In this document: positions 13,431-21,936 of the stretch, piece by piece
Position numbering within the stretch: position 1 is the first letter of the stretch
How the letters are laid out: every line of letters begins with the position of its first letter
The notes under the pieces: generated by a model
The model's input: the letters and a program-made list of their open reading frames with translations, nothing else
Told to the model about the DNA's origin: nothing
The model's database searches: none
NCBI GenBank assembly: GCA_003557645.1
Contig: PWNV01000015.1
Location: 1-34,636 of the forward strand
Reading direction: 5' to 3'
DNA from: Candidatus Nealsonbacteria bacterium
GTDB taxonomy: Bacteria; Patescibacteriota; Minisyncoccia; Minisyncoccales; PWPS01
Length of the DNA: 34,636 nt
Made by a program: the position numbers and the translations under genes

Positions 13431-14375
13431 ATGCTAAAAGAAAACAAAATAACTCTAGTCTTATTAGTATTAATAATGAGCCTTGGTATAAGTTATTTAG
13501 TGGTGGCTTGGGAGGGTCCTCCTGGTGAACCTACGTACTGCCCTTCTGGGTATCCGGGATGTGATGCTCCTCTTGATGTTGGGCCTACACACCAAGCAAA
13601 AGAAGGAGGAGTGTCGGTCAATTCTTTTGTTGCCAGGGCTGGAGCAATCTTAGCTCAAAGCAGTGGTAACGTTGGCATAGGAAGATCACCTAGTTATAAG
13701 TTGGATGTTCAAGGAGACGTTCGCTGGTCTGGTATTTTAAGGGGAGGAACAGTTCCTTGGGCGAGGCTTTCTGGACACCCTTCTATTAATGCAGGAACTG
13801 GTCTTACGGGTGGAGGAACTTTATCTAGTAGTCGGACAATTAATGTTGATACAAACTATCTTCAGAGGAGAGTTTCTAGTACATGTAGCGGTGATCAGGC
13901 TATTCGAGCAATCGGCTCTACGGGATCGGTTACGTGTGTTGATGTTGGTGGCGGTGGCGGAATAACTAGTTTAAGTGAATTAAACATTGATACTAATAAA
14001 AATTGGGCAGGGCGCAGAATTACTAATCTAGGCTCTCCTTCGGCTTCTTCTGACGCAGCAACGAAGGGTTATGTTGATGCACAAGCGGGAGGAGGTATTT
14101 CAGACTGTGTTTATGAGGCGAGATTTGGCTCGTGTCCTATGGATGAGAATTGTATAGAATACTCTCCCACTTGCCCTTCTGGCTATCATTTAACGGGTGG
14201 TGGACATTTTGTAAGTAGCACGATAGGGGGAGTAACAGATGTTTACGCTAGTGGAAGTTTTCCAACTGGTGACTATGGTCAACCCAGGGACAGGTGGCGG
14301 TGTCATTTTTACAGAGAAAGAACTGGCGCCCTCGTTAATTACCTTACTTTTTGTTATGCCATTTGTTGTAGATAA
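13431..14375 (+). CDS. secreted/anchored Gly- and Cys-rich protein with tail-fibre-like motifs
   Basis: 314 aa. N-terminal signal anchor. Motifs NVGIGRSPSYKLDVQGDV, RVSSTCSGDQAIRAIGSTGSVTCV and ITNLGSPSASSDAATKGYVD resemble motifs seen in phage tail-fibre and bacterial tail-fibre-domain proteins. Cys-rich C-terminus. Visibly higher G+C than its neighbours. Confidence 0.6.
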   Translation: MLKENKITLVLLVLIMSLGISYLVVAWEGPPGEPTYCPSGYPGCDAPLDVGPTHQAKEGGVSVNSFVARAGAILAQSSGNVGIGRSPSYKLDVQGDVRWSGILRGGTVPWARLSGHPSINAGTGLTGGGTLSSSRTINVDTNYLQRRVSSTCSGDQAIRAIGSTGSVTCVDVGGGGGITSLSELNIDTNKNWAGRRITNLGSPSASSDAATKGYVDAQAGGGISDCVYEARFGSCPMDENCIEYSPTCPSGYHLTGGGHFVSSTIGGVTDVYASGSFPTGDYGQPRDRWRCHFYRERTGALVNYLTFCYAICCR

Positions 14376-14399
14376 AAGAATAATTTCAAATCACTTCTC

Positions 14400-14903
14400 A
14401 TGAATAAAAAAAATATTATATTATTACTCTTCGCTTGCTCAGTATCTTTTCTGGCGGGGTTTTTAATTGATAGAGGCGAGGAGAAGATAGTGAAAACGGA
14501 TAGTGATGTTGAAGAAGAGCTTGCTTGGCACATATCTCAGCTAGAGGCACTTTATCCTCCTCTCGAGGAAGAGATTTATCTTGTTGGAGGGGAAGTTATT
14601 GAAATAGGGAGTGATTATTTAATAATAGAAAGAGAGGTTCGAACAAGGCAAGTTCCTTCTATTGAAGAAGGACTGTTTGAGACGTGGAATATTAGAATTA
14701 ACATAACCGAAGAAACAGAAATCTTTAAAAGTAGCGTAATAACAGATCTAGGGCAAGGAGCGGTGATAGATGATCCTTTTCAAAGAGAGATTGTGAGCAT
14801 TGAAGATATCAAAGAAGGGAGCTTAGTAGGGGTGAAATCTGACAAAAATATAAAAGGAGAGAAGGAAGTTTTGGCTGCTCAAATCGAAGTTTATGATTTC
14901 TAG
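14400..14903 (+). CDS. hypothetical membrane-anchored/secreted protein
   Basis: 167 aa. N-terminal hydrophobic segment, then a beta-rich acidic domain. No family recognised. Confidence 0.5.
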   Translation: MNKKNIILLLFACSVSFLAGFLIDRGEEKIVKTDSDVEEELAWHISQLEALYPPLEEEIYLVGGEVIEIGSDYLIIEREVRTRQVPSIEEGLFETWNIRINITEETEIFKSSVITDLGQGAVIDDPFQREIVSIEDIKEGSLVGVKSDKNIKGEKEVLAAQIEVYDF

Positions 14904-14923
14904 CTGAAAAAAGACTGCAGAAC

Positions 14924-14956
14924 AAAAAAACAAGCAGAAAGACTGCTTGTTTTTTT
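14924..14956. terminator. bidirectional intrinsic terminator between convergent genes
   Basis: AAAAAAACAAGCAG (14924-14937) pairs with CTGCTTGTTTTTTT (14943-14956) across loop AAAGA. A/T runs on both sides serve the plus gene ending at 14903 and minus-strand topA ending at 14972. Confidence 0.8.
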
Positions 14957-14971
14957 GATAAAATTTTATTA

Positions 14972-17026
14972 TTACGCTTTTTCAGGGGAAGGTTTCTGGT
15001 TAGAGGTAAAGGTGCATTCTGGATATTGGTCACAAGCATAAAAGGCCCCCCTCTTTGATTTTTTTTGCACTACTTTTCCTTTTTTACAGTTAGGACAAGT
15101 TATATTGAGATCTTCTTCTCCTACTCCTTTTATGTTCTTACATTCTGGATAGTTGCTGCATCCGTAAAACTGACCAAATCTGCTTTTCTTTAACTGCATC
15201 TTTGCGTTGCACTTATCACATGTTTTTTCCTCTTCCTCCTCCTCTCCCTCTAGTGGTTTTGTGTTTTTACATTCAGGAAAGTTAGTACAAGCAAGAAATT
15301 TACCATACTTCCCTAACTTAATTGCCATATTGGCACCACACTTGTCACATTTTTCTTCTGTTTTTTCTTCCATAATATCTTCTTTTTTAATTTCTTTTTC
15401 TTTATTTTTTAATTTTTCTGCAAAGTCGTCATAAAAATACTCTATTAATTTTTTCCACTCTTTATTCCCGCTCGCTATTTCATCCAAATTCTCTTCCATC
15501 TTTGCGGTAAAGTCAAGGTCTGTAATAAAAGGGAAGTGCTCTGCTAGAAACTTACTTACGATGGTTCCGACCTCGGTTGGCTTCAAGTATTTTTTATCTA
15601 CTTTTTCGATGTAATTTCTATTAAAAAGAGTAGAAAGTGTAGGGGCATAAGTTGAGGGCCTTCCGATGCCGTGCTTCTCCATTTTCTTAATAAGCGTACC
15701 CTCGGTAAAGCGAGCTGGAGGTTTTGTAAAGTGTTGTTCGGGGTTTATTCTATCCAGCTTTGGCTTTTCTCCCTTTTCTACTTTTACTAATTCCTTTTCT
15801 TCAAATTTCATCGGATATATTTTTGTAAAGCCAGGAAATTTGAGAGTGGATCCGGAGGCAGAAAGAAGATAATTATTTTCACTTTTTGCCTCAACGCTTA
15901 CAGTTGTACTGTAGAAAACAGCTTCTTTCATCTGTGTGGCAAGAAAACGGCGCCAGATAAGATCGTAGAGACGAGCTTCTTCTTTCTTTAAAGAGGAAGG
16001 CTCGCGTAGTGGGTCGGAAGGTCTTATGGCTTCGTGTGCTTCTTGAGTTCTTCCCTTTGCAGAAAAATTTCTTTCTTTGTGATAATCTTTTCCAATCTTT
16101 TCTTCAATATATTTTTGTGCTTGTTTTTTCGCCTGAGAAGAGAGGTGCAAAGAGTCGGTACGGTGATAAGTAATAAGTCCCTTTTCGTAGAGTTTTTGCG
16201 CGATGCTCATTGTAAAGCGAGATGGGTAGTTCATTCTTTTGAACGCCTCTTGTTGCATCGTGCTTGTGGTAAAAGGAGGAAGAGGATGGCGTTTTTTCTC
16301 TTTTTTCTCTACAAAGATTATTTGAAAACTCGCTTTTTGAAGATCTTCTTCAATCTTGACCTTCTCGACTTCCTTTAATCCTGGTTTTTCAATTGTTTTA
16401 TCGTTTTTTTTCTTTAGAACAACTTCCATCTCTCCCTCTTTACAGAGAAGATTTACGTTTATAGTCCAGTACTCTTCTGACTTAAAGGCGCTTATCTCTT
16501 CCTCTCTACTTGTAATGATGTGTAGAGCAGCGGACTGCACTCTTCCCGCAGAAAGACCTTTTGCTATCTTTTTCCAGAGAAGAGGAGAGAGTTTGTAACC
16601 AACAAGGCGATCAAGTACCCTTCGTGCTTGCTGGGCATCTACTAGAGCCATGTCGATGGAGTGAGGGTTTTGCAAAGATTCTTTAATAGACTCTTCTGTT
16701 ATTTCGTGAAAAGTTATTCGTTTGTACTCTTTCAAGTCTAAAGCTTCTAACAAGTGGTAGGAGATGGCTTCACCTTCTCGATCCGGGTCGGTTCCAAGAT
16801 ACACGAGATCGGCTTTTTTAACTTCTTTTTTAAGAGAGTTTACATTTTTTCTTGCTTTTGTCGGGATAATGTAATTTGGTTCAAAGTTTTTTTCGATGTC
16901 AATTCCTAGCTTGTTTTTTGGTAGATCACGAATGTGCCCCATAGAGGCAAGAACTTTGTACTCCTTTCCAAGAAACTTTTCCAATGTTTTTATTTTTGTT
17001 GGACTTTCCACTAAAATTAATTTCAT
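14972..17026 (-). CDS. topA: DNA topoisomerase I (type IA) with three C-terminal C4 zinc ribbons
   Basis: TOPRIM N-terminus (MKLILVESPTK). Active-site region and topo IA core. Three CxxC..CxxC ribbons at the C-terminus. The likely start is the ATG at 17026 (MKLILVESP). The tracked 16-aa extension from 17074 is hydrophobic junk. Confidence 0.9.
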   Translation of the reverse strand: MKLILVESPTKIKTLEKFLGKEYKVLASMGHIRDLPKNKLGIDIEKNFEPNYIIPTKARKNVNSLKKEVKKADLVYLGTDPDREGEAISYHLLEALDLKEYKRITFHEITEESIKESLQNPHSIDMALVDAQQARRVLDRLVGYKLSPLLWKKIAKGLSAGRVQSAALHIITSREEEISAFKSEEYWTINVNLLCKEGEMEVVLKKKNDKTIEKPGLKEVEKVKIEEDLQKASFQIIFVEKKEKKRHPLPPFTTSTMQQEAFKRMNYPSRFTMSIAQKLYEKGLITYHRTDSLHLSSQAKKQAQKYIEEKIGKDYHKERNFSAKGRTQEAHEAIRPSDPLREPSSLKKEEARLYDLIWRRFLATQMKEAVFYSTTVSVEAKSENNYLLSASGSTLKFPGFTKIYPMKFEEKELVKVEKGEKPKLDRINPEQHFTKPPARFTEGTLIKKMEKHGIGRPSTYAPTLSTLFNRNYIEKVDKKYLKPTEVGTIVSKFLAEHFPFITDLDFTAKMEENLDEIASGNKEWKKLIEYFYDDFAEKLKNKEKEIKKEDIMEEKTEEKCDKCGANMAIKLGKYGKFLACTNFPECKNTKPLEGEEEEEEKTCDKCNAKMQLKKSRFGQFYGCSNYPECKNIKGVGEEDLNITCPNCKKGKVVQKKSKRGAFYACDQYPECTFTSNQKPSPEKA

Positions 17027-17067
17027 GGTAAAAAAGAATAACACAAAAAAGAGAAAGAAAGAAGTAC

Positions 17068-17095
17068 TTGACAAATTAAGAAATTATAATATAAT
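17068..17095 (+). promoter_or_regulatory. near-consensus sigma70 promoter (TTGACA-16-TATAAT) firing into the pth-topA spacer
   Basis: TTGACA at 17068-17073, a 16-nt spacer, TATAAT at 17090-17095. The predicted start is near G17102. There is no plus-strand protein gene downstream. Confidence 0.6.
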
Positions 17096-17101
17096 ATGGA
17101 T

Positions 17102-17280
17102 GGTTCCCTAGATTTGCTCGCAAGCGGCTCCTTTCTGTAAAGTTTCTCTTTGAGAGCTCGCAGAAAGAAAAAAATAAAATCCCTCCTTTTTTTATTATGA
17201 GTCGGTGTTCGAAAGAACGCTTCCTGTTTTTGAGCCGTTATCGGTCGCGAAGACGGGGTTTGCGGGCAGCTCTAAGGAAC
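17102..17280 (+). ncRNA. candidate orphan structured small RNA, family not recognised
   Basis: G+C-rich island in an AT-rich spacer (44 of 80 G+C by hand count for 17201-17280). The ends pair (17103-17112 with 17271-17280, 9 of 10 bp). A 7-bp helix joins 17131-17137 and 17161-17167. A GAAA-tetraloop hairpin spans 17204-17221. An A/U hairpin presents loop UCCCUCC (17180-17186). Confidence 0.45.
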
Positions 17281-17853
17281 TTAATTTAAATGTATAGTGG
17301 AAGAACTTATCTCTGAAGGGATAAGTTTTTTTAATTCCTCAGCTGCTCTTTTTTCTATCTCTCTTCTTTCAGGAGAGAGCTCTTTTAGTACGATCTCTCT
17401 TGCTTTTTCTTCTTTTCTTCTTATTCCAACTCGTAAGCGAGCAAAGTCTTTACTGCGAAGGTGATCAATAATTGATTGCACTCCTTTGTGTCCAGCTGAT
17501 CCACGAGAAGTGGAAAAGCGTAGCGTGCCGAAAGGAAGATCAGAATCATCGTGAACTACTATTAATTTTTCAGGGGAAAATCTATCAAACGCTTTTTTTA
17601 CCGCAAGACCGGAACGATTCATAAAGGTTAAAGGGAGAATTATTATTGCTTCTTTTCCTTCAATTTCTCCTTTTGATTTAAGGGAGTTTAAAGTGTTGTC
17701 TTTTTCAAACCAGGGGAAGTTTTCGTTGTTTCTAAGATGAGAAACAACACGGAAACCGCAGTTATGTGCGGTTTTTGCGTATTTTTCTCCAGGATTACCA
17801 AGCCCAACGATAAGACAATAAATTTGTTTTGTTTTTCTTTTTTTCCACCACAT
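17281..17853 (-). CDS. pth: peptidyl-tRNA hydrolase
   Basis: LIVGLGNPG..Y..T.HN.GF, the HDD.D region and GHNG-type GHKG motifs. The likely start is the ATG at 17853 (MWWKKRK...), because a TATAAT box lies inside the tracked longer ORF. Confidence 0.9.
   Translation of the reverse strand: MWWKKRKTKQIYCLIVGLGNPGEKYAKTAHNCGFRVVSHLRNNENFPWFEKDNTLNSLKSKGEIEGKEAIIILPLTFMNRSGLAVKKAFDRFSPEKLIVVHDDSDLPFGTLRFSTSRGSAGHKGVQSIIDHLRSKDFARLRVGIRRKEEKAREIVLKELSPERREIEKRAAEELKKLIPSEISSSTIHLN
17304..17332 (+). terminator. possible plus-strand terminator for the candidate sRNA (antisense to the pth 3' end)
   Basis: AACTTATC (17304-17311) pairs with GATAAGTT (17320-17327), followed by TTTTT. The stem is AU-rich and lies inside pth coding sequence, so it may be coincidental. 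Confidence 0.3.
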
Positions 17854-17859
17854 AATTTT

Positions 17860-17865
17860 ATTATA
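17860..17865 (-). promoter_or_regulatory. -10 box (TATAAT) placed for a leaderless pth transcript
   Basis: Minus-strand TATAAT at 17865-17860. Six nt separate it from the ATG at 17853. No good -35 was seen. Confidence 0.35.
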
Positions 17866-17872
17866 CCCTGTC

Positions 17873-17901
17873 TTGATAATTTTAGGAAATTTTGTTATCA
17901 T
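17873..17901 (+). promoter_or_regulatory. promoter (TTGATA-17-TATCAT) placed for a leaderless or near-leaderless lepB transcript
   Basis: TTGATA at 17873-17878, a 17-nt spacer, TATCAT at 17896-17901. The ATG at 17910 lies 8 nt after the -10. Confidence 0.45.
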
Positions 17902-17909
17902 TACGCGTG

Positions 17910-18452
17910 ATGAAGAATAAATATAGCTTTTTAATAGAAACTGCAAAGATAATTCTTATTGCACTACTTATCGTGTTGCCGGTGAGGCATTTTCTGTTTC
18001 AGCCCTTCGTTGTAAGAGGAGCTTCTATGGAGCCGAGCTTTCAAGAGGGCGATTATCTTCTTATTGATCAGCTTTCTTATCGTTTTTCCAGCCCGGAAAG
18101 GGGAGATACTATTGTTTTTCGATATCCCAGAGATCCAAGCAGAAGATATATTAAACGTATTATTGGTCTTCCAGGAGAGACTTTAGTTATAGAAGATGGA
18201 AACATTTACGTTACAAACGATGATAAAAAAGAAAAACTGGAAGAAGACTATATTTTAGAATCGGAAACTTTTTTAGGGATGAGCGTCTCTCTCGAAGAGG
18301 ATGAATTTTTTGTGATTGGTGATAATCGCGGAGCTTCTTTTGACTCCAGAGAGTGGGGTTCTCTTTCTAGTGATTATATTATTGGAAAAGTTTTTTTTAG
18401 AGTAGCTCCATTTGAAAAGGTTTTTGCACGCGTAGAAGCCCCATCTTATTAA
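17910..18452 (+). CDS. lepB: signal peptidase I
   Basis: N-terminal TM segment. Catalytic Ser box GASMEPS, Lys box KRIIGLPGE, and GDNRGASFDSREWG. ATG 17910 is preferred over the tracked TTG at 17892. Confidence 0.9.
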   Translation: MKNKYSFLIETAKIILIALLIVLPVRHFLFQPFVVRGASMEPSFQEGDYLLIDQLSYRFSSPERGDTIVFRYPRDPSRRYIKRIIGLPGETLVIEDGNIYVTNDDKKEKLEEDYILESETFLGMSVSLEEDEFFVIGDNRGASFDSREWGSLSSDYIIGKVFFRVAPFEKVFARVEAPSY

Positions 18453-18453
18453 T

Positions 18454-19713
18454 ATGTCCAAAAGTTTTCAAAGCCCAAGTGGAATGCACGATGTTTTTGG
18501 AGAGCAGTATGACTATTTTGAGAAAATAAGAGAGGTTTTTTCTAGGATGGCTACAACTTACGGATTCGAAGGGATCGAGATTCCGATAATGGAAAATGCA
18601 AAAGTTTTCAGCAGAGGAGTAGGAGAGCACACTGACATTATAGAAAAAGAGATGTATGCATTTAAAACAAAGGGAGGAGATCAGGTTGCTCTACGACCAG
18701 AAGGAACTGCGGGAATAGTACGAGCTTATATCGAACATAATCTTTATACAAAAAGTCAACCGATCAAGTTTTTTTATTTTGCTCCTTTTTTTCGTTATGA
18801 AAGACCACAAGCAGGGCGATATCGACAATTTTGGCAGTTTGGATTAGAGACAATCGGGAAAGGAGGACCGGTAGTTGATGCTCAGATTATTGCAGTGATG
18901 TATAATGTTCTCCGGGAGCTTGGTATCAAGGATTTAATGATAGAGATAAACAGCATGGGAGAGTCAAAGTGCCGAGAAGATTTCGAAAAAGTGCTAAAAA
19001 AGTACCTTCGAAAAGAAAGTTCTTCTCTCTGTGCGGACTGTAAAAGAAGGATGAAAAAGAACCCTCTTCGTGTTTTGGACTGTAAAAGGTGCATAAAAGT
19101 AAAAGAGAGCGCACCGCAAATCGTAGATCATATTTGTCCAAAGTGCCGCGAAGATTTTAAAAAGGTCCTTGAGTATCTGGAAGAACTTAAAATTCCTTAT
19201 GATTTGAATTCTTTTTTAGTTCGTGGTCTAGACTATTACACAAATACGGTGTATGAATTTTTTGCTCCAGGAGAAGAAGGAAGACTTGCACTTGGTGGCG
19301 GTGGACGTTACGATGGACTGGCCAAACTTTTAGGAGGAGAGGAAACTCCTGCTACGGGAGCAGCAATGGGAGTAGAGAGAACAGTTCTTTTAATGAAAAA
19401 TGATGGAATAAAAGTAGAAAAGGAAAAACCGAAGATTTTTATTGCACAACTCAGCGACCTGGCAAAAAGAAAGTGCTTAAAACTGTTTGAGGAGTTTAGA
19501 GAGGCTAAAATTCCTGTTTCTGAGTCTTTTGGACAAGACTCCTTAAAGGGGCAGATGAGCAAGGCAAATAAAATGAAAGTAGATTACACGCTTATTATAG
19601 GAGAAGAAGAAGCGGCAGAAGACAGGGTCATTGTTCGTGATATGGAATCAGGGCAGCAGGAGAGTTTAAGTACAAAGGAAGTAGTCAAAGAGATTAAGAA
19701 AAAATTAAAGTAA
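18454..19713 (+). CDS. hisS: histidine--tRNA ligase
   Basis: 419 aa. Class II motifs (LRPEGT, FRYERPQAGRYRQF, GGGRYD) and a C-terminal anticodon-binding domain. Confidence 0.95.
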   Translation: MSKSFQSPSGMHDVFGEQYDYFEKIREVFSRMATTYGFEGIEIPIMENAKVFSRGVGEHTDIIEKEMYAFKTKGGDQVALRPEGTAGIVRAYIEHNLYTKSQPIKFFYFAPFFRYERPQAGRYRQFWQFGLETIGKGGPVVDAQIIAVMYNVLRELGIKDLMIEINSMGESKCREDFEKVLKKYLRKESSSLCADCKRRMKKNPLRVLDCKRCIKVKESAPQIVDHICPKCREDFKKVLEYLEELKIPYDLNSFLVRGLDYYTNTVYEFFAPGEEGRLALGGGGRYDGLAKLLGGEETPATGAAMGVERTVLLMKNDGIKVEKEKPKIFIAQLSDLAKRKCLKLFEEFREAKIPVSESFGQDSLKGQMSKANKMKVDYTLIIGEEEAAEDRVIVRDMESGQQESLSTKEVVKEIKKKLK

Positions 19714-19715
19714 TC

Positions 19716-20054
19716 ATGGAAAACTGCATTTTTTGTAAAATAGCTCAAAAAGAGGTCCCTTCTGAGATTATTTACGAAGATGAAAAAGTGATTGTTTTTA
19801 AGGACCTTAATCCAAAAGCTCCTGTTCATCTTCTTGTTGTTCCTCGAGAACATATAGCTTCTGTTAGAGAGCTCGAAGAAAAGGATAAGGAGATTATAGG
19901 AGAGCTTTTTCTTGTAGCAAAAAAAGTAGCAGAAAAGGAGGGGATTGGAGAGAGTGGTTATAAATTAGCAGTAAACGTAGGAGAAGGAGGAGGACAGGAG
20001 GTATTCCACCTGCACATTCATTTGCTTGGAGGATGGAAAAATGGTAAAAGATAG
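19716..20054 (+). CDS. HIT-family (histidine triad) nucleotide hydrolase
   Basis: 112 aa. CIFCKI N-terminus and the HLHIHLLGG triad. Confidence 0.9.
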   Translation: MENCIFCKIAQKEVPSEIIYEDEKVIVFKDLNPKAPVHLLVVPREHIASVRELEEKDKEIIGELFLVAKKVAEKEGIGESGYKLAVNVGEGGGQEVFHLHIHLLGGWKNGKR

Positions 20055-20082
20055 TATAAGTTTATAAGATTAAAATAATTTT

Positions 20083-20301
20083 ATGGCGTTAGAAGTGCAT
20101 AGAAAAGACAAAGAAAATAATAGTAGTTTGGTACATCGTTTTACTCGTTCTGTAATGCAAAGTGGGATTATAAAAGAAGCGAGATCAAGAAGATTTCGCC
20201 AACGTCCCTTAAGTGATGCAGCAAAAAAACGTGCTGCTCTCAAGAAAGAGCGAGGGAAGGCGGAGTACGAGAAGATGAGGAAAATGGGGAAAATAAAGTA
20301 A
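20083..20301 (+). CDS. rpsU: 30S ribosomal protein S21
   Basis: 72 aa, very basic. L.RF.R......I..E.R.R..F..P S21 pattern. Confidence 0.8.
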   Translation: MALEVHRKDKENNSSLVHRFTRSVMQSGIIKEARSRRFRQRPLSDAAKKRAALKKERGKAEYEKMRKMGKIK

Positions 20302-20711
20302 TGGAAATAAACAATCTTACGGCATTTTCTTTTGATAAAGACAAGCTCCGCGAAGTAGCGGAGTTTGTGTTTAAAAAAGAGAAAGTGAAAGGGGAAATAT
20401 CTATTGCTTTTGTTAGTCTTGATGAAATAAGGAAGATTAATAGAGATTATCGAGGGAGGGATTACGCAACAGATGTTCTTTCTTTCTCATTTGGAGAAGA
20501 AAAGCATGATTTTCGGGGGGAGATAGTGATTTCTCCGGAAAAAATAGAGGAAAAAGGAAGTGATTTTTCAAAAGATATTTTGCGTGCTATTATACATGGA
20601 GTTCTCCATATTTTAGGATACGACCACATCAGAGAAGAAGAGGAGAGAAAAATGAAAGAGAAGGAAGAGCTTTATCTTTCCTTGGTTGAAAATAATTCAT
20701 TAAAAAGATAG
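20301..20711 (+). CDS. ybeY: rRNA maturation endoribonuclease YbeY
   Basis: 136 aa. Metal-binding HGVLHILGYDH motif. Its start overlaps the rpsU stop (TAATG). Confidence 0.9.
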   Translation: MEINNLTAFSFDKDKLREVAEFVFKKEKVKGEISIAFVSLDEIRKINRDYRGRDYATDVLSFSFGEEKHDFRGEIVISPEKIEEKGSDFSKDILRAIIHGVLHILGYDHIREEEERKMKEKEELYLSLVENNSLKR

Positions 20712-20721
20712 AATAAAAATA

Positions 20722-21936
20722 ATGAGTAAGTCTCCCACAATCGCCGCCCTTGATATCGGAACAGGAACTATAAAAGCAATAATAGTTCAGAGATCAGCTG
20801 AAGAGTCCGGCTTTAAAGTCATGGGAAAATCAGAAAACATCTCTTCTGGGATTAGAAAAGGAGTAATAGTTGATCCGGAGAGAGTAGGAAGAATTATCTA
20901 TACTACTATTTCGGAAGCGATGCAGGAAGCAGGATCTTCGGTAGAAGAGATTTATGCTAATATAAATGGGAGTCACATTTTCTCTATTTTTTCCAAAGGC
21001 TTAGTTTCTGTTTCAAGAGCGGATCAAAAGATATCACAAGAAGATATTGACCGAGTGATCGAGGCAGCGAAAGCGTTTTCTCTTCCCTCCAACAAGGAGA
21101 TTTTAGAGATAATTCCTCGCGAGTTTACAGTAGACAAGGAGGGAGGAATCAAGAATCCACTTGGATTGCAAGGAATAAGACTAGAAACAGAGATTTTGGC
21201 TATCGGAGGATTTGTTCCCTACTCCAAAAATTTGAATCAGGCAATCTCAAACGCTAAACTACAGACAAATGAACTTATTCTAAATCCCATAGCAAGCGCA
21301 AAGGCGGTTCTTACTACGGAAGAAAAGGAGCTTGGAGTTGTGGTCGTTGATATCGGTGCGGGAACCACTGGAATCTCTGTCTATGAAGAGGAAGAGCTCT
21401 TACATATTTCTGTTTTACCGATAGGGACAAATAATATTAGAAATGACATTGCTATTGGACTAAAAATTAACATAGAAACCGCAGAATTTGTAAAAAATAA
21501 ATTTGGTGCTTCTATTTTAGGAGAAAAAAGCAGCAAGAAGGAAAAACTGAAGATTCCTGAAGGAGAAGAGGTCTTTTTCCAAAGAAGTGATCTTAAAAAA
21601 ATAGCAGAACCTCGCATTAAAGAAATTTTTGACGAAATAGAGAAGGAGCTGAAAAAGATATCACGGAACGGATCACTTCCTGCAGGTCTGGTATTAACCG
21701 GGGGAGGAGCGAAAATACCTCATTTGGTTGATTTTGCTCGAAAGAGACTTGGTTTGTCTTGCCGAATAGGAGCCCCTCGCAGGTTTTTCTCACTAGAAGA
21801 GGATCCTTCTTTCTCTGTTCTTTGTGGTCTTGTTCTTGAAGGGGCAGAGGAAGAAGAGGATGAAAAGATGGGATTTGCATTTTCTAAAGGTCTTGGTGAA
21901 AAGATCAAGAAAGCGTTTAAAGTTTTTATACCATGA
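20722..21936 (+). CDS. ftsA: cell division protein FtsA
   Basis: 404 aa. Actin-fold phosphate motifs (ALDIGTGTIK, VVDIGAGTT, LTGGGA) and a C-terminal amphipathic tail (KIKKAFKVFIP). Confidence 0.9.
   Translation: MSKSPTIAALDIGTGTIKAIIVQRSAEESGFKVMGKSENISSGIRKGVIVDPERVGRIIYTTISEAMQEAGSSVEEIYANINGSHIFSIFSKGLVSVSRADQKISQEDIDRVIEAAKAFSLPSNKEILEIIPREFTVDKEGGIKNPLGLQGIRLETEILAIGGFVPYSKNLNQAISNAKLQTNELILNPIASAKAVLTTEEKELGVVVVDIGAGTTGISVYEEEELLHISVLPIGTNNIRNDIAIGLKINIETAEFVKNKFGASILGEKSSKKEKLKIPEGEEVFFQRSDLKKIAEPRIKEIFDEIEKELKKISRNGSLPAGLVLTGGGAKIPHLVDFARKRLGLSCRIGAPRRFFSLEEDPSFSVLCGLVLEGAEEEEDEKMGFAFSKGLGEKIKKAFKVFIP

Follow-up and report, generated by a model that had tools for sequence, protein, structure and literature searches.

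A predicted structured RNA family with an invariant C-rich loop in an order of Parcubacteria-like bacteria whose readable 16S rRNA ends lack the anti-Shine-Dalgarno motif

The spacer between the topA and pth genes of a Candidatus Nealsonbacteria genome encodes a predicted conserved structured RNA of a previously undescribed family, in which a covarying, branched fold displays a C-rich hairpin loop of almost invariant sequence. The stretch of DNA analysed (hereafter the window) comprises 34,636 nucleotides (nt) of contig PWNV01000015.1 from GenBank assembly GCA_003557645.1 and corresponds to contig C10 of the genome designated here as G000 (596 kb in 22 contigs, 98.5% complete); the RNA occupies positions 17102-17282 of its plus strand. 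As far as searched, the family is limited to one order of Paceibacteria/Parcubacteria-like bacteria, and its only invariant element reads like the anti-Shine-Dalgarno (anti-SD) sequence that the ribosomes of this lineage no longer carry. Judged from its sequence, the RNA probably regulates a small number of genes through base pairing; that it does so as a scaffolded base-pairing regulator, acting in trans in the window's genome, is a tentative proposal to which we give slightly less than an even chance.

The element of about 180 nt folds with a minimum free energy (MFE) of -75.5 kcal/mol (z -6.81), which none of 200 dinucleotide shuffles equalled, while the minus strand of the same element has a z of -2.94. 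The predicted structure is made up of a long closing stem (P1), a stem (P2) bearing two sub-hairpins (P2a and P2b), and two further hairpins (P3 and P4), the coordinates of which are given in Table 1. All the helices listed in a first-pass annotation of the window reappear in this fold, namely the joining of the 5' and 3' ends, here extended to 22 bp, the CUUUCUG/CAGAAAG helix (17131-17138 with 17160-17167), the 7-bp hairpin with a GAAA tetraloop, and the A/U stem that displays UCCCUCC. An alternative CAGAAAG/CUUCCUG pairing that was also described lies outside the conserved structure. The G+C-rich island noted at the same place is real, with a G+C content of 0.425 over 17100-17299 and of approximately 0.30 in the flanks.

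A DNA search of 40 relatives returned a full-length match at 75% identity in a genome of the same genus, and partial ones, covering the promoter and core, in additional genomes of the window's taxonomic family (hereafter the window's family), within which the plus-strand RNA keeps its place between topA and pth, both on the opposite strand. RNAalifold predicted 49 consensus pairs in an alignment of 12 family members, with compensatory double changes in 40 of them. Two covariance models were built, R1 from 12 sequences with the outer part of P1 trimmed and R2 from 19 sequences. At E ≤ 0.001, R2 matched 33 of the 151 sampled genomes of the order (30 at E < 1e-8), always as a single copy, and these genomes represent about 20 of the 80 families sampled; the element had at first been regarded as an orphan, a description that this distribution overturns. 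Outside the order, a single genome of the 145 in the class sample gave a weak match (31 bits, E 1.8e-4). When 40 members are aligned to R2, standard pairs make up 95.1% of 1220 cells and double changes occur in 32 of 33 pairs, counts that were taken on an alignment fitted to the R2 model itself. None of 500 shuffles equalled the observed pairing, and sliding the partners by 1-3 columns left 38-48% paired. The covariation in relatives that had been suggested as a check on the element is present in both alignments. The window, itself among the sequences used to build both models, reaches 132.1 bits with R1 and 111.2 bits with R2, and members outside the R2 building set score 50-89 bits.

The individual stems differ in how they are conserved. 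Double changes affect 11 of the 12 modelled pairs of P1, which in the same-genus relative has a wholly different sequence with its pairing kept, and all 13 modelled pairs of P4, the tip of which is UWAU or UUUU in most members. P2 covaries as GGCUC/GAGCC, GGUUC/GAACC and GGCCC/GGGCC. The seven pairs of P3 covary inside the window's family, and in other families this hairpin is absent or reduced. The P2a site is occupied in every member by a hairpin of differing sequence, which lies outside the pairs of the covariance model.

The sole invariant unpaired stretch is a 10-mer, AUCCCUCCUU, which occupies positions 17179-17188 of the window in a hairpin loop and is identical in 38 of the 40 members, whose profile contains hardly any other conserved unpaired position. 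The stem closing the loop covaries (CUAAG/CUUAG, CAGGC/GCCUG, AUAGG/CCUAU and CUAGAC/GUCUAG). The anti-SD-like, C-rich loop had been singled out in the first-pass annotation as the working part, and it proves to be the one part of the family that is both unpaired and invariant; the remainder of the RNA appears to behave as a scaffold that presents it. Alongside the AUCCCUCCUU loop, the family is characterised by P1, P2, P4 and a single copy per genome, all of which were found for the window RNA. One genus of the window's family has an enlarged loop with two CCUCC motifs. Of the two members in which the 10-mer differs, one (L223, G107:C17:3036-3176, minus strand) is the only member with a loop that has lost CCUCC, and the G-rich box that follows P1 has changed together with its 5' partner in a compensating manner, which hints, as a single case, that the loop can also pair with this box.

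The family was also sought among public contigs with a loop-plus-P1 pattern, which returned at least 120 stretches, mostly chance Shine-Dalgarno (SD) sites in unrelated phyla. Nine of these, with titles that were unclassified or pointed to the candidate phyla radiation (CPR), were run through R1 and yielded four real members, in records titled Candidatus Paceibacteria, Candidatus Nealsonbacteria, 'uncultured Candidatus Saccharibacteria' and unclassified bacterium.

The RNA is bounded by predicted transcription signals of its own. A search of sequencing runs for positions 14000-21000 returned two DNA runs and no RNA run, which bears on expression in neither direction. The TTGACA-16-TATAAT promoter, initially described as near-perfect, scores 12 out of 12 in a consensus scan, and a TTGACA...TAATATAAT promoter also precedes the RNA in relatives; from the position of the promoter, transcription would begin near G17102. 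A possible terminator had been placed at 17304-17332, antisense to the end of pth, and the fold contains a hairpin there with a CUUAUCUC/GGGAUAAG stem (17306-17325) followed by U7 (17326-17332), inside the pth open reading frame (ORF) and antisense to its last codons. The same-genus relative retains a CUUAUCUC...GAGAUAAG hairpin with U7, and other genera of the window's family have an unrelated hairpin and U-run at this position.

Table 1 Predicted features of the RNA and its transcription signals (positions in the window)
Feature	Start	End	Strand	Basis	Description
Promoter, sigma-70 type	17068	17095	+	Consensus scan, 12/12	TTGACA (17068-17073), 16-nt spacer, TATAAT (17090-17095)
P1, 5' strand	17102	17125	+	MFE	Long closing stem; pairs with 17258-17281, 22 bp
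P2, 5' strand	17126	17130	+	MFE, covariation	GGCUC; pairs with GAGUC 17199-17203
P2a	17131	17167	+	MFE	Variable hairpin, 8 + 7 bp
P2b	17173	17196	+	MFE	Weak A/U stem, 17173-17179 with 17190-17196; displays AUCCCUCCUU (17179-17188)
P3	17204	17221	+	MFE	7-bp hairpin, GAAA loop; specific to the window's own family
P4	17223	17257	+	MFE	Long hairpin with internal loops, UUAU tip (17238-17241)
P1, 3' strand	17258	17281	+	MFE	End abuts the pth stop codon (17281-17283, minus strand)
Intrinsic-terminator-like hairpin	17306	17332	+	Fold of 17102-17335	8-bp core, UGAA loop, plus U7

The host ribosome gives this loop an unusual setting. The 16S ribosomal RNA (rRNA) gene of G000 (C12:28089-29595) has an A/U-rich tail without CCUCC after helix 45 (h45), and a tail of this kind was present at all 21 readable 16S 3' ends of the order, G000 included, which were drawn from 11 families. 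These findings agree with Tsurumaki et al. 2022 (PMC9297842), who report a Parcubacteria subgroup that has lost the anti-SD motif. The usual 16S-tail 13-mer was present in 36 of 151 genomes of the class sample, compared with no matches for the reversed control; the one same-order match (G094) was rejected as an anti-SD, not being at a 16S end. GGAGG precedes the first ATG by 4-18 nt in 1.5% of 545 ORFs of G000 and precedes 1.9% of 2362 internal ATGs, and leaders in this genome are A/U-rich and G-poor. On these figures, G000 makes no general use of SD sites.

GGAGG boxes are nevertheless found ahead of a subset of genes. There are 68 GGAGG sites ahead of a 5'-most ORF start, with 30 at a spacing of 7-9 nt and other spacings represented by 1 to 6 each, and the boxed ORFs often start with TTG or GTG. 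Positioned boxes in G000 cluster on C3:101.9-171 kb and C15:2.2-4.1 kb, which may be mobile or recently acquired DNA. These two regions (C3:101900-171100 and C15:2200-4140) consist mostly of small hypothetical ORFs with A-rich GGAGG boxes 7-9 nt upstream, and they include an HD-domain gene beside the GGDEF gene of G000, along with ORFs that were named GreA-like (two) and HNH-like (one) from motifs recognised by eye.

In other lineages the RNA is associated with such boxes directly. Members outside the window's family, besides being without P3, have a P1 extension in which CCUUCCRG pairs with CYGGAGGG, so that a GGAGG/GAGGG box stands directly after P1 as a covarying extension of it in 23 of 27 members. 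A same-strand ORF with a GGAG-type box at SD-like spacing follows 24-65 nt downstream in 18 of these 27, one further scripted case having been removed because it was the P1 extension itself. In most families the RNA appears to be the 5' leader of the downstream ORF, and in the window's genome it stands alone. The downstream ORFs are diverse, comprising GGDEF proteins, small membrane-like peptides, and Cys-rich and other small ORFs. A GGDEF gene lies directly downstream in six of the 40 members, five recognised by Pfam (66-126 bits) and the sixth in G007, a genome of the window's family. In five members from other families (L064, L067, L068, L209 and L219) the RNA is followed by a recurring type of ORF of 40-82 amino acids (aa) with one hydrophobic helix and then a strongly charged, R/K/E-rich tail. 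Within the window's family none of 13 members has a G-rich box after P1, and in the window's genus and one other genus the RNA ends in a terminator with no downstream gene. A GGDEF gene lies within approximately 2.5 kb of the RNA in five genomes of this family, and a GGAGG-type box is present within 20 nt of the start in eight of nine of its GGDEF genes.

The sole GGDEF gene of G000 (C3:117822-118349, minus strand; 111.8 bits) has an intact GGDEF motif, a promoter-like TATAAT of its own and a G-rich box ahead of its ATG. Its 5' untranslated region contains a 12-nt perfect complement of positions 17174-17185 of the window. Genome-wide, perfect 12-nt complements that include the core number seven, four of them just upstream of an ORF start. 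The HD-domain gene adjoining the GGDEF gene has AAAGGAGGGA 8 nt ahead of its TTG start. This single GGDEF diguanylate-cyclase gene and its HD-domain neighbour are the best candidate targets, and the recurrent link with GGDEF genes suggests control of cyclic di-GMP (c-di-GMP) synthesis.

Under the proposed mechanism, the covarying body (P1, P2 with its two sub-hairpins, P3 and P4) would present the invariant AUCCCUCCUU in a hairpin loop which, being complementary to GGAGG(G), would pair with boxes just upstream of start codons in a small set of mRNAs. Such pairing would close an otherwise open, A/U-rich initiation region and thereby lower translation. In most families the action would be in cis, with the RNA as the 5' leader of the regulated ORF, and in the window's family, where the RNA is detached, we propose action in trans because it has a promoter and a terminator of its own. 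Since the 16S rRNA is without an anti-SD and genes are generally without SD sites, the boxes cannot serve as ordinary ribosome-binding sites, and the GGAGG box in this lineage is best explained as a docking site for the loop.

Several observations weigh against this proposal. The ratio of positioned boxes to the reversed control is 1.35 in the 33 genomes with the RNA and 1.23 in the 118 without it (Mann-Whitney p 0.15-0.5, not significant; mean box excess 12.4 and 7.5, respectively, p 0.15), and the similar excess in genomes without the RNA therefore indicates that the boxes are independent of this RNA. Duplex energy does not rank the sites selectively: the GGDEF leader takes 15th place among 2762 G-rich windows and is outscored by many coding sites, which are favoured by their purine-rich sequence. 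One GGDEF gene of the window's family (in G012) has no box. The narrow, SD-like spacing of 7-9 nt (30 of 68 boxes) is not something that simple occlusion requires, and an elaborate scaffold maintained across the order exceeds the usual needs of a small RNA (sRNA) that pairs through a seed.

The most serious competing explanation, which we nevertheless regard as unlikely, is that the RNA is a ligand-sensing leader of a new riboswitch-like class, possibly linked to c-di-GMP, with the form in the window being a detached aptamer that acts in trans. Ligand binding at the junction would select the partner of the 3' GGAGGG box among the 5' CCUUCC strand of the P1 extension, the loop and one arm of a downstream terminator. 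P1 closes a junction, an architecture that suits this explanation, and the covarying GGAGG/GAGGG extension of P1 and the six members directly upstream of GGDEF genes fit it as well. In seven members (L060, L062, L063, L065, L068, L208 and L216), GAGGGC of the extension can instead, judged by eye, pair with a downstream GCUCUU that is followed by a U-rich tract. Known aptamers, however, retain many invariant junction bases, and among the 40 members there are almost no conserved unpaired positions outside the loop. None of the Rfam riboswitch classes, including c-di-GMP-I and -II, matched the window RNA or 16 relatives; at E ≤ 0.05, 16 members gave two Rfam matches, both to plant microRNA models and attributable to chance. 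The diversity of the downstream genes also argues against a ligand-sensing leader, as do the separate terminator and the lack of a GGAGG box after P1 in all 13 members of the window's family.

A protein, rather than an mRNA, could be the partner of the loop if the RNA were a decoy of the lost 16S 3' tail that binds or titrates a protein still recognising the tail sequence, such as a KH-domain assembly factor or a platform ribosomal protein. We consider this improbable. The loop AUCCCUCCUU has AUC and CCUCC in common with the tail motif GAUCACCUCC, which is named in the Era literature (in a title from the reference list of PMC10582724), and in other families the loop stem often has G or A ahead of AUC. 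The near-absolute invariance of the 10-mer over about 20 families is what would be expected of a partner that is unable to covary, but an equal constraint would come from numerous mRNA targets. In the genomic contexts seen, the RNA is not accompanied by any candidate protein. The KH_2 domain (PF07650) has one strong match in G000, in a 237-aa frame, and one weak match, in a 380-aa frame. Era itself is absent from most CPR bacteria according to the review PMC10582724, which also speaks against a decoy.

A further alternative to the preferred reading, in which the loop masks boxes, is an outsourced anti-SD. Here the loop, either in cis or in trans, would form an SD-like helix with mRNAs that carry a GGAGG box, and docking of this helix on the platform of the 30S subunit would substitute for the lost 16S tail and position the start codon; this seems very unlikely to us. 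We give equally little credence to its boldest form, in which the outsourced anti-SD can be regulated and defines a private translation regulon. The SD-like spacing of the boxes, often ahead of weak TTG or GTG starts, is in keeping with this explanation, as is the lack of an anti-SD in the 16S rRNA of the order. Also in its favour, Tsurumaki et al. 2022 (PMC9297842) note that Parcubacteria have kept helix 26 (h26), the contact site of the SD helix, conserved for no known reason. The distribution of the RNA is patchy, however, with matches in only 33 of the 151 genomes sampled from an order without an anti-SD wherever checked; box excess is not significantly larger in genomes that have it, and complementarity to the 16S tail is not conserved. 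Pairing of the RNA with the 16S trailer was considered separately and dropped because the matching segment, a 9-nt match in G000, falls in the P2a stem, which is variable in relatives.

It is hardly credible that this locus encodes a small protein or a divergent housekeeping RNA, be it 6S RNA, signal recognition particle (SRP) RNA, tmRNA or RNase P RNA. A length near 180 nt, together with a strong promoter and a long stem closing the fold, does superficially recall 6S or SRP RNA, and SRP RNA was not found anywhere in the genome. The first-pass annotation could not assign the element to tRNA, tmRNA, RNase P or the SRP domain IV consensus, and it fared no differently here: Rfam 15 gave no match at the gathering score over the whole window, only chance-level matches with no 6S or SRP RNA among them were obtained for 16950-17450 at E ≤ 10, and ARAGORN found neither a tRNA nor a tmRNA in the window. 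RNase P RNA (C3:131102-131431, 137.5 bits) and tmRNA (C5:10597-10948, 116.6 bits) are encoded on other contigs, both above their cut-offs. 6S RNA has a rod-like fold with a large central bubble between closing and terminal stems, binds sigma-70 RNA polymerase and serves as template for product RNAs. The 6S-like identity that had been left open runs counter to the covarying multi-branch junction, and the best 6S (RF00013) match of the genome is at another locus, with 16.3 bits against a cut-off of 46.4. That intergenic match (G000:C8:26996-27135, plus strand) folds as a long rod with internal loops (z -3.3) and is possibly a divergent 6S RNA. A small protein gene was rejected since the ATG of the 30-aa ORF concerned (17197-17289) is not kept in the same-genus relative.

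SRP RNA was dropped as an identity because Ffh and FtsY were not found either. The models RF00169 and RF01854 had no match anywhere in the genome at E ≤ 10, RF00169 matched none of 41 genomes of the order, and neither the Ffh M domain (PF02978) nor the SRP54 GTPase domain (PF00448) was found in G000 at its completeness of 98.5%. PF00448, the GTPase domain of Ffh and FtsY, had a strong match in one of the 41 genomes, which is 68% complete. Should the absence be real, a whole bacterial order would be without an SRP.

Both genes flanking the RNA are encoded on the minus strand. The topA gene (14975-17026) is identified by Topoisom_bac (409 bits, Pfam) together with Toprim and Zn ribbons, and pth (17284-17850) by Pept_tRNA_hydro (163 bits, Pfam), within a minus-strand ORF that spans 17281-17946. 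The spacer between them was at first called the only long non-coding gap of the window. A second ORF-poor gap exists at 520-914, so the statement does not hold to the letter, but that gap carries a 64-aa ORF at 623-817 and the statement holds in practice. This ORF (plus strand) has a TTGACA-type promoter upstream and a hairpin with a U-run downstream, and by its motif it resembles a cold-shock protein.

In the literature on Patescibacteria, Parcubacteria and the candidate phyla radiation, supplements being outside the search, no description of such an RNA was found. CPR bacteria have tiny genomes and few recognised regulators, and to our knowledge almost no regulatory RNAs have been described from them. 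A regulatory RNA with an anti-SD-like element is of a known kind; new are the family, its scaffold and its setting among ribosomes without an anti-SD. The family is well supported by its strong promoter, single copy per genome and heavy covariation, and it raises the question of what GGAGG boxes ahead of start codons signify in cells whose ribosomes cannot read them. Were the RNA simply to mask the boxes, it would be a compact post-transcriptional switch, seemingly tied to c-di-GMP synthesis; were it to hand them to the ribosome, it would represent a new way of initiating translation. Its covariance model also provides annotation pipelines with a new entry for a group in which Rfam finds little.

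Among known systems, 6S RNA (RF00013) is similar in its length of about 180 nt, its strong sigma-70 promoter and its 5' and 3' ends joined in a long stem, but differs in having a rod with a central bubble in place of the branched junction, and its model has no match at the locus. Like the ordinary 16S 3' tail (GAUCACCUCC, as printed in PMC10582724), the loop has AUC and CCUCC followed by U's, single-stranded beside a helix. In contrast to that tail, it has one residue fewer between AUC and CCUCC, is internal to a hairpin rather than at a free 3' end, and lies outside the 16S gene, which is on another contig and ends without CCUCC.

Leaders that sequester the SD site in cis include translational riboswitch platforms, RNA thermometers and the mRNA leaders of type I toxins. 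The new family resembles them in that its CCUCC-type element, in the 5' leader, precedes a GGAGG box and start codon by 30-65 nt, and in that alternative pairings between G-rich and C-rich boxes are possible. In contrast to these leaders, its anti-SD element is held in the conserved loop of a large independent fold that occurs once per genome and serves downstream genes unrelated to one another. No conserved core resembling a ligand pocket is visible in this fold, and the window has no downstream gene at all. The closest likeness in mode of action may be to the RsaE/RoxS type, which are sRNAs of low-G+C bacteria that base-pair through C-rich loops. Like these sRNAs, the window RNA would be transcribed on its own, between promoter and intrinsic-terminator motifs, and an unpaired C-rich loop motif is predicted to pair with the G-rich start regions of several mRNAs. 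It has no match to any Rfam sRNA sequence or model, however, and the host ribosome is without an anti-SD, so that the G-rich boxes are not the usual ribosome-binding sites. The window RNA is also much larger than the RsaE/RoxS type, having a four-way scaffold that covaries and a closing stem of 22 bp, and across lineages its family is mostly a cis leader.

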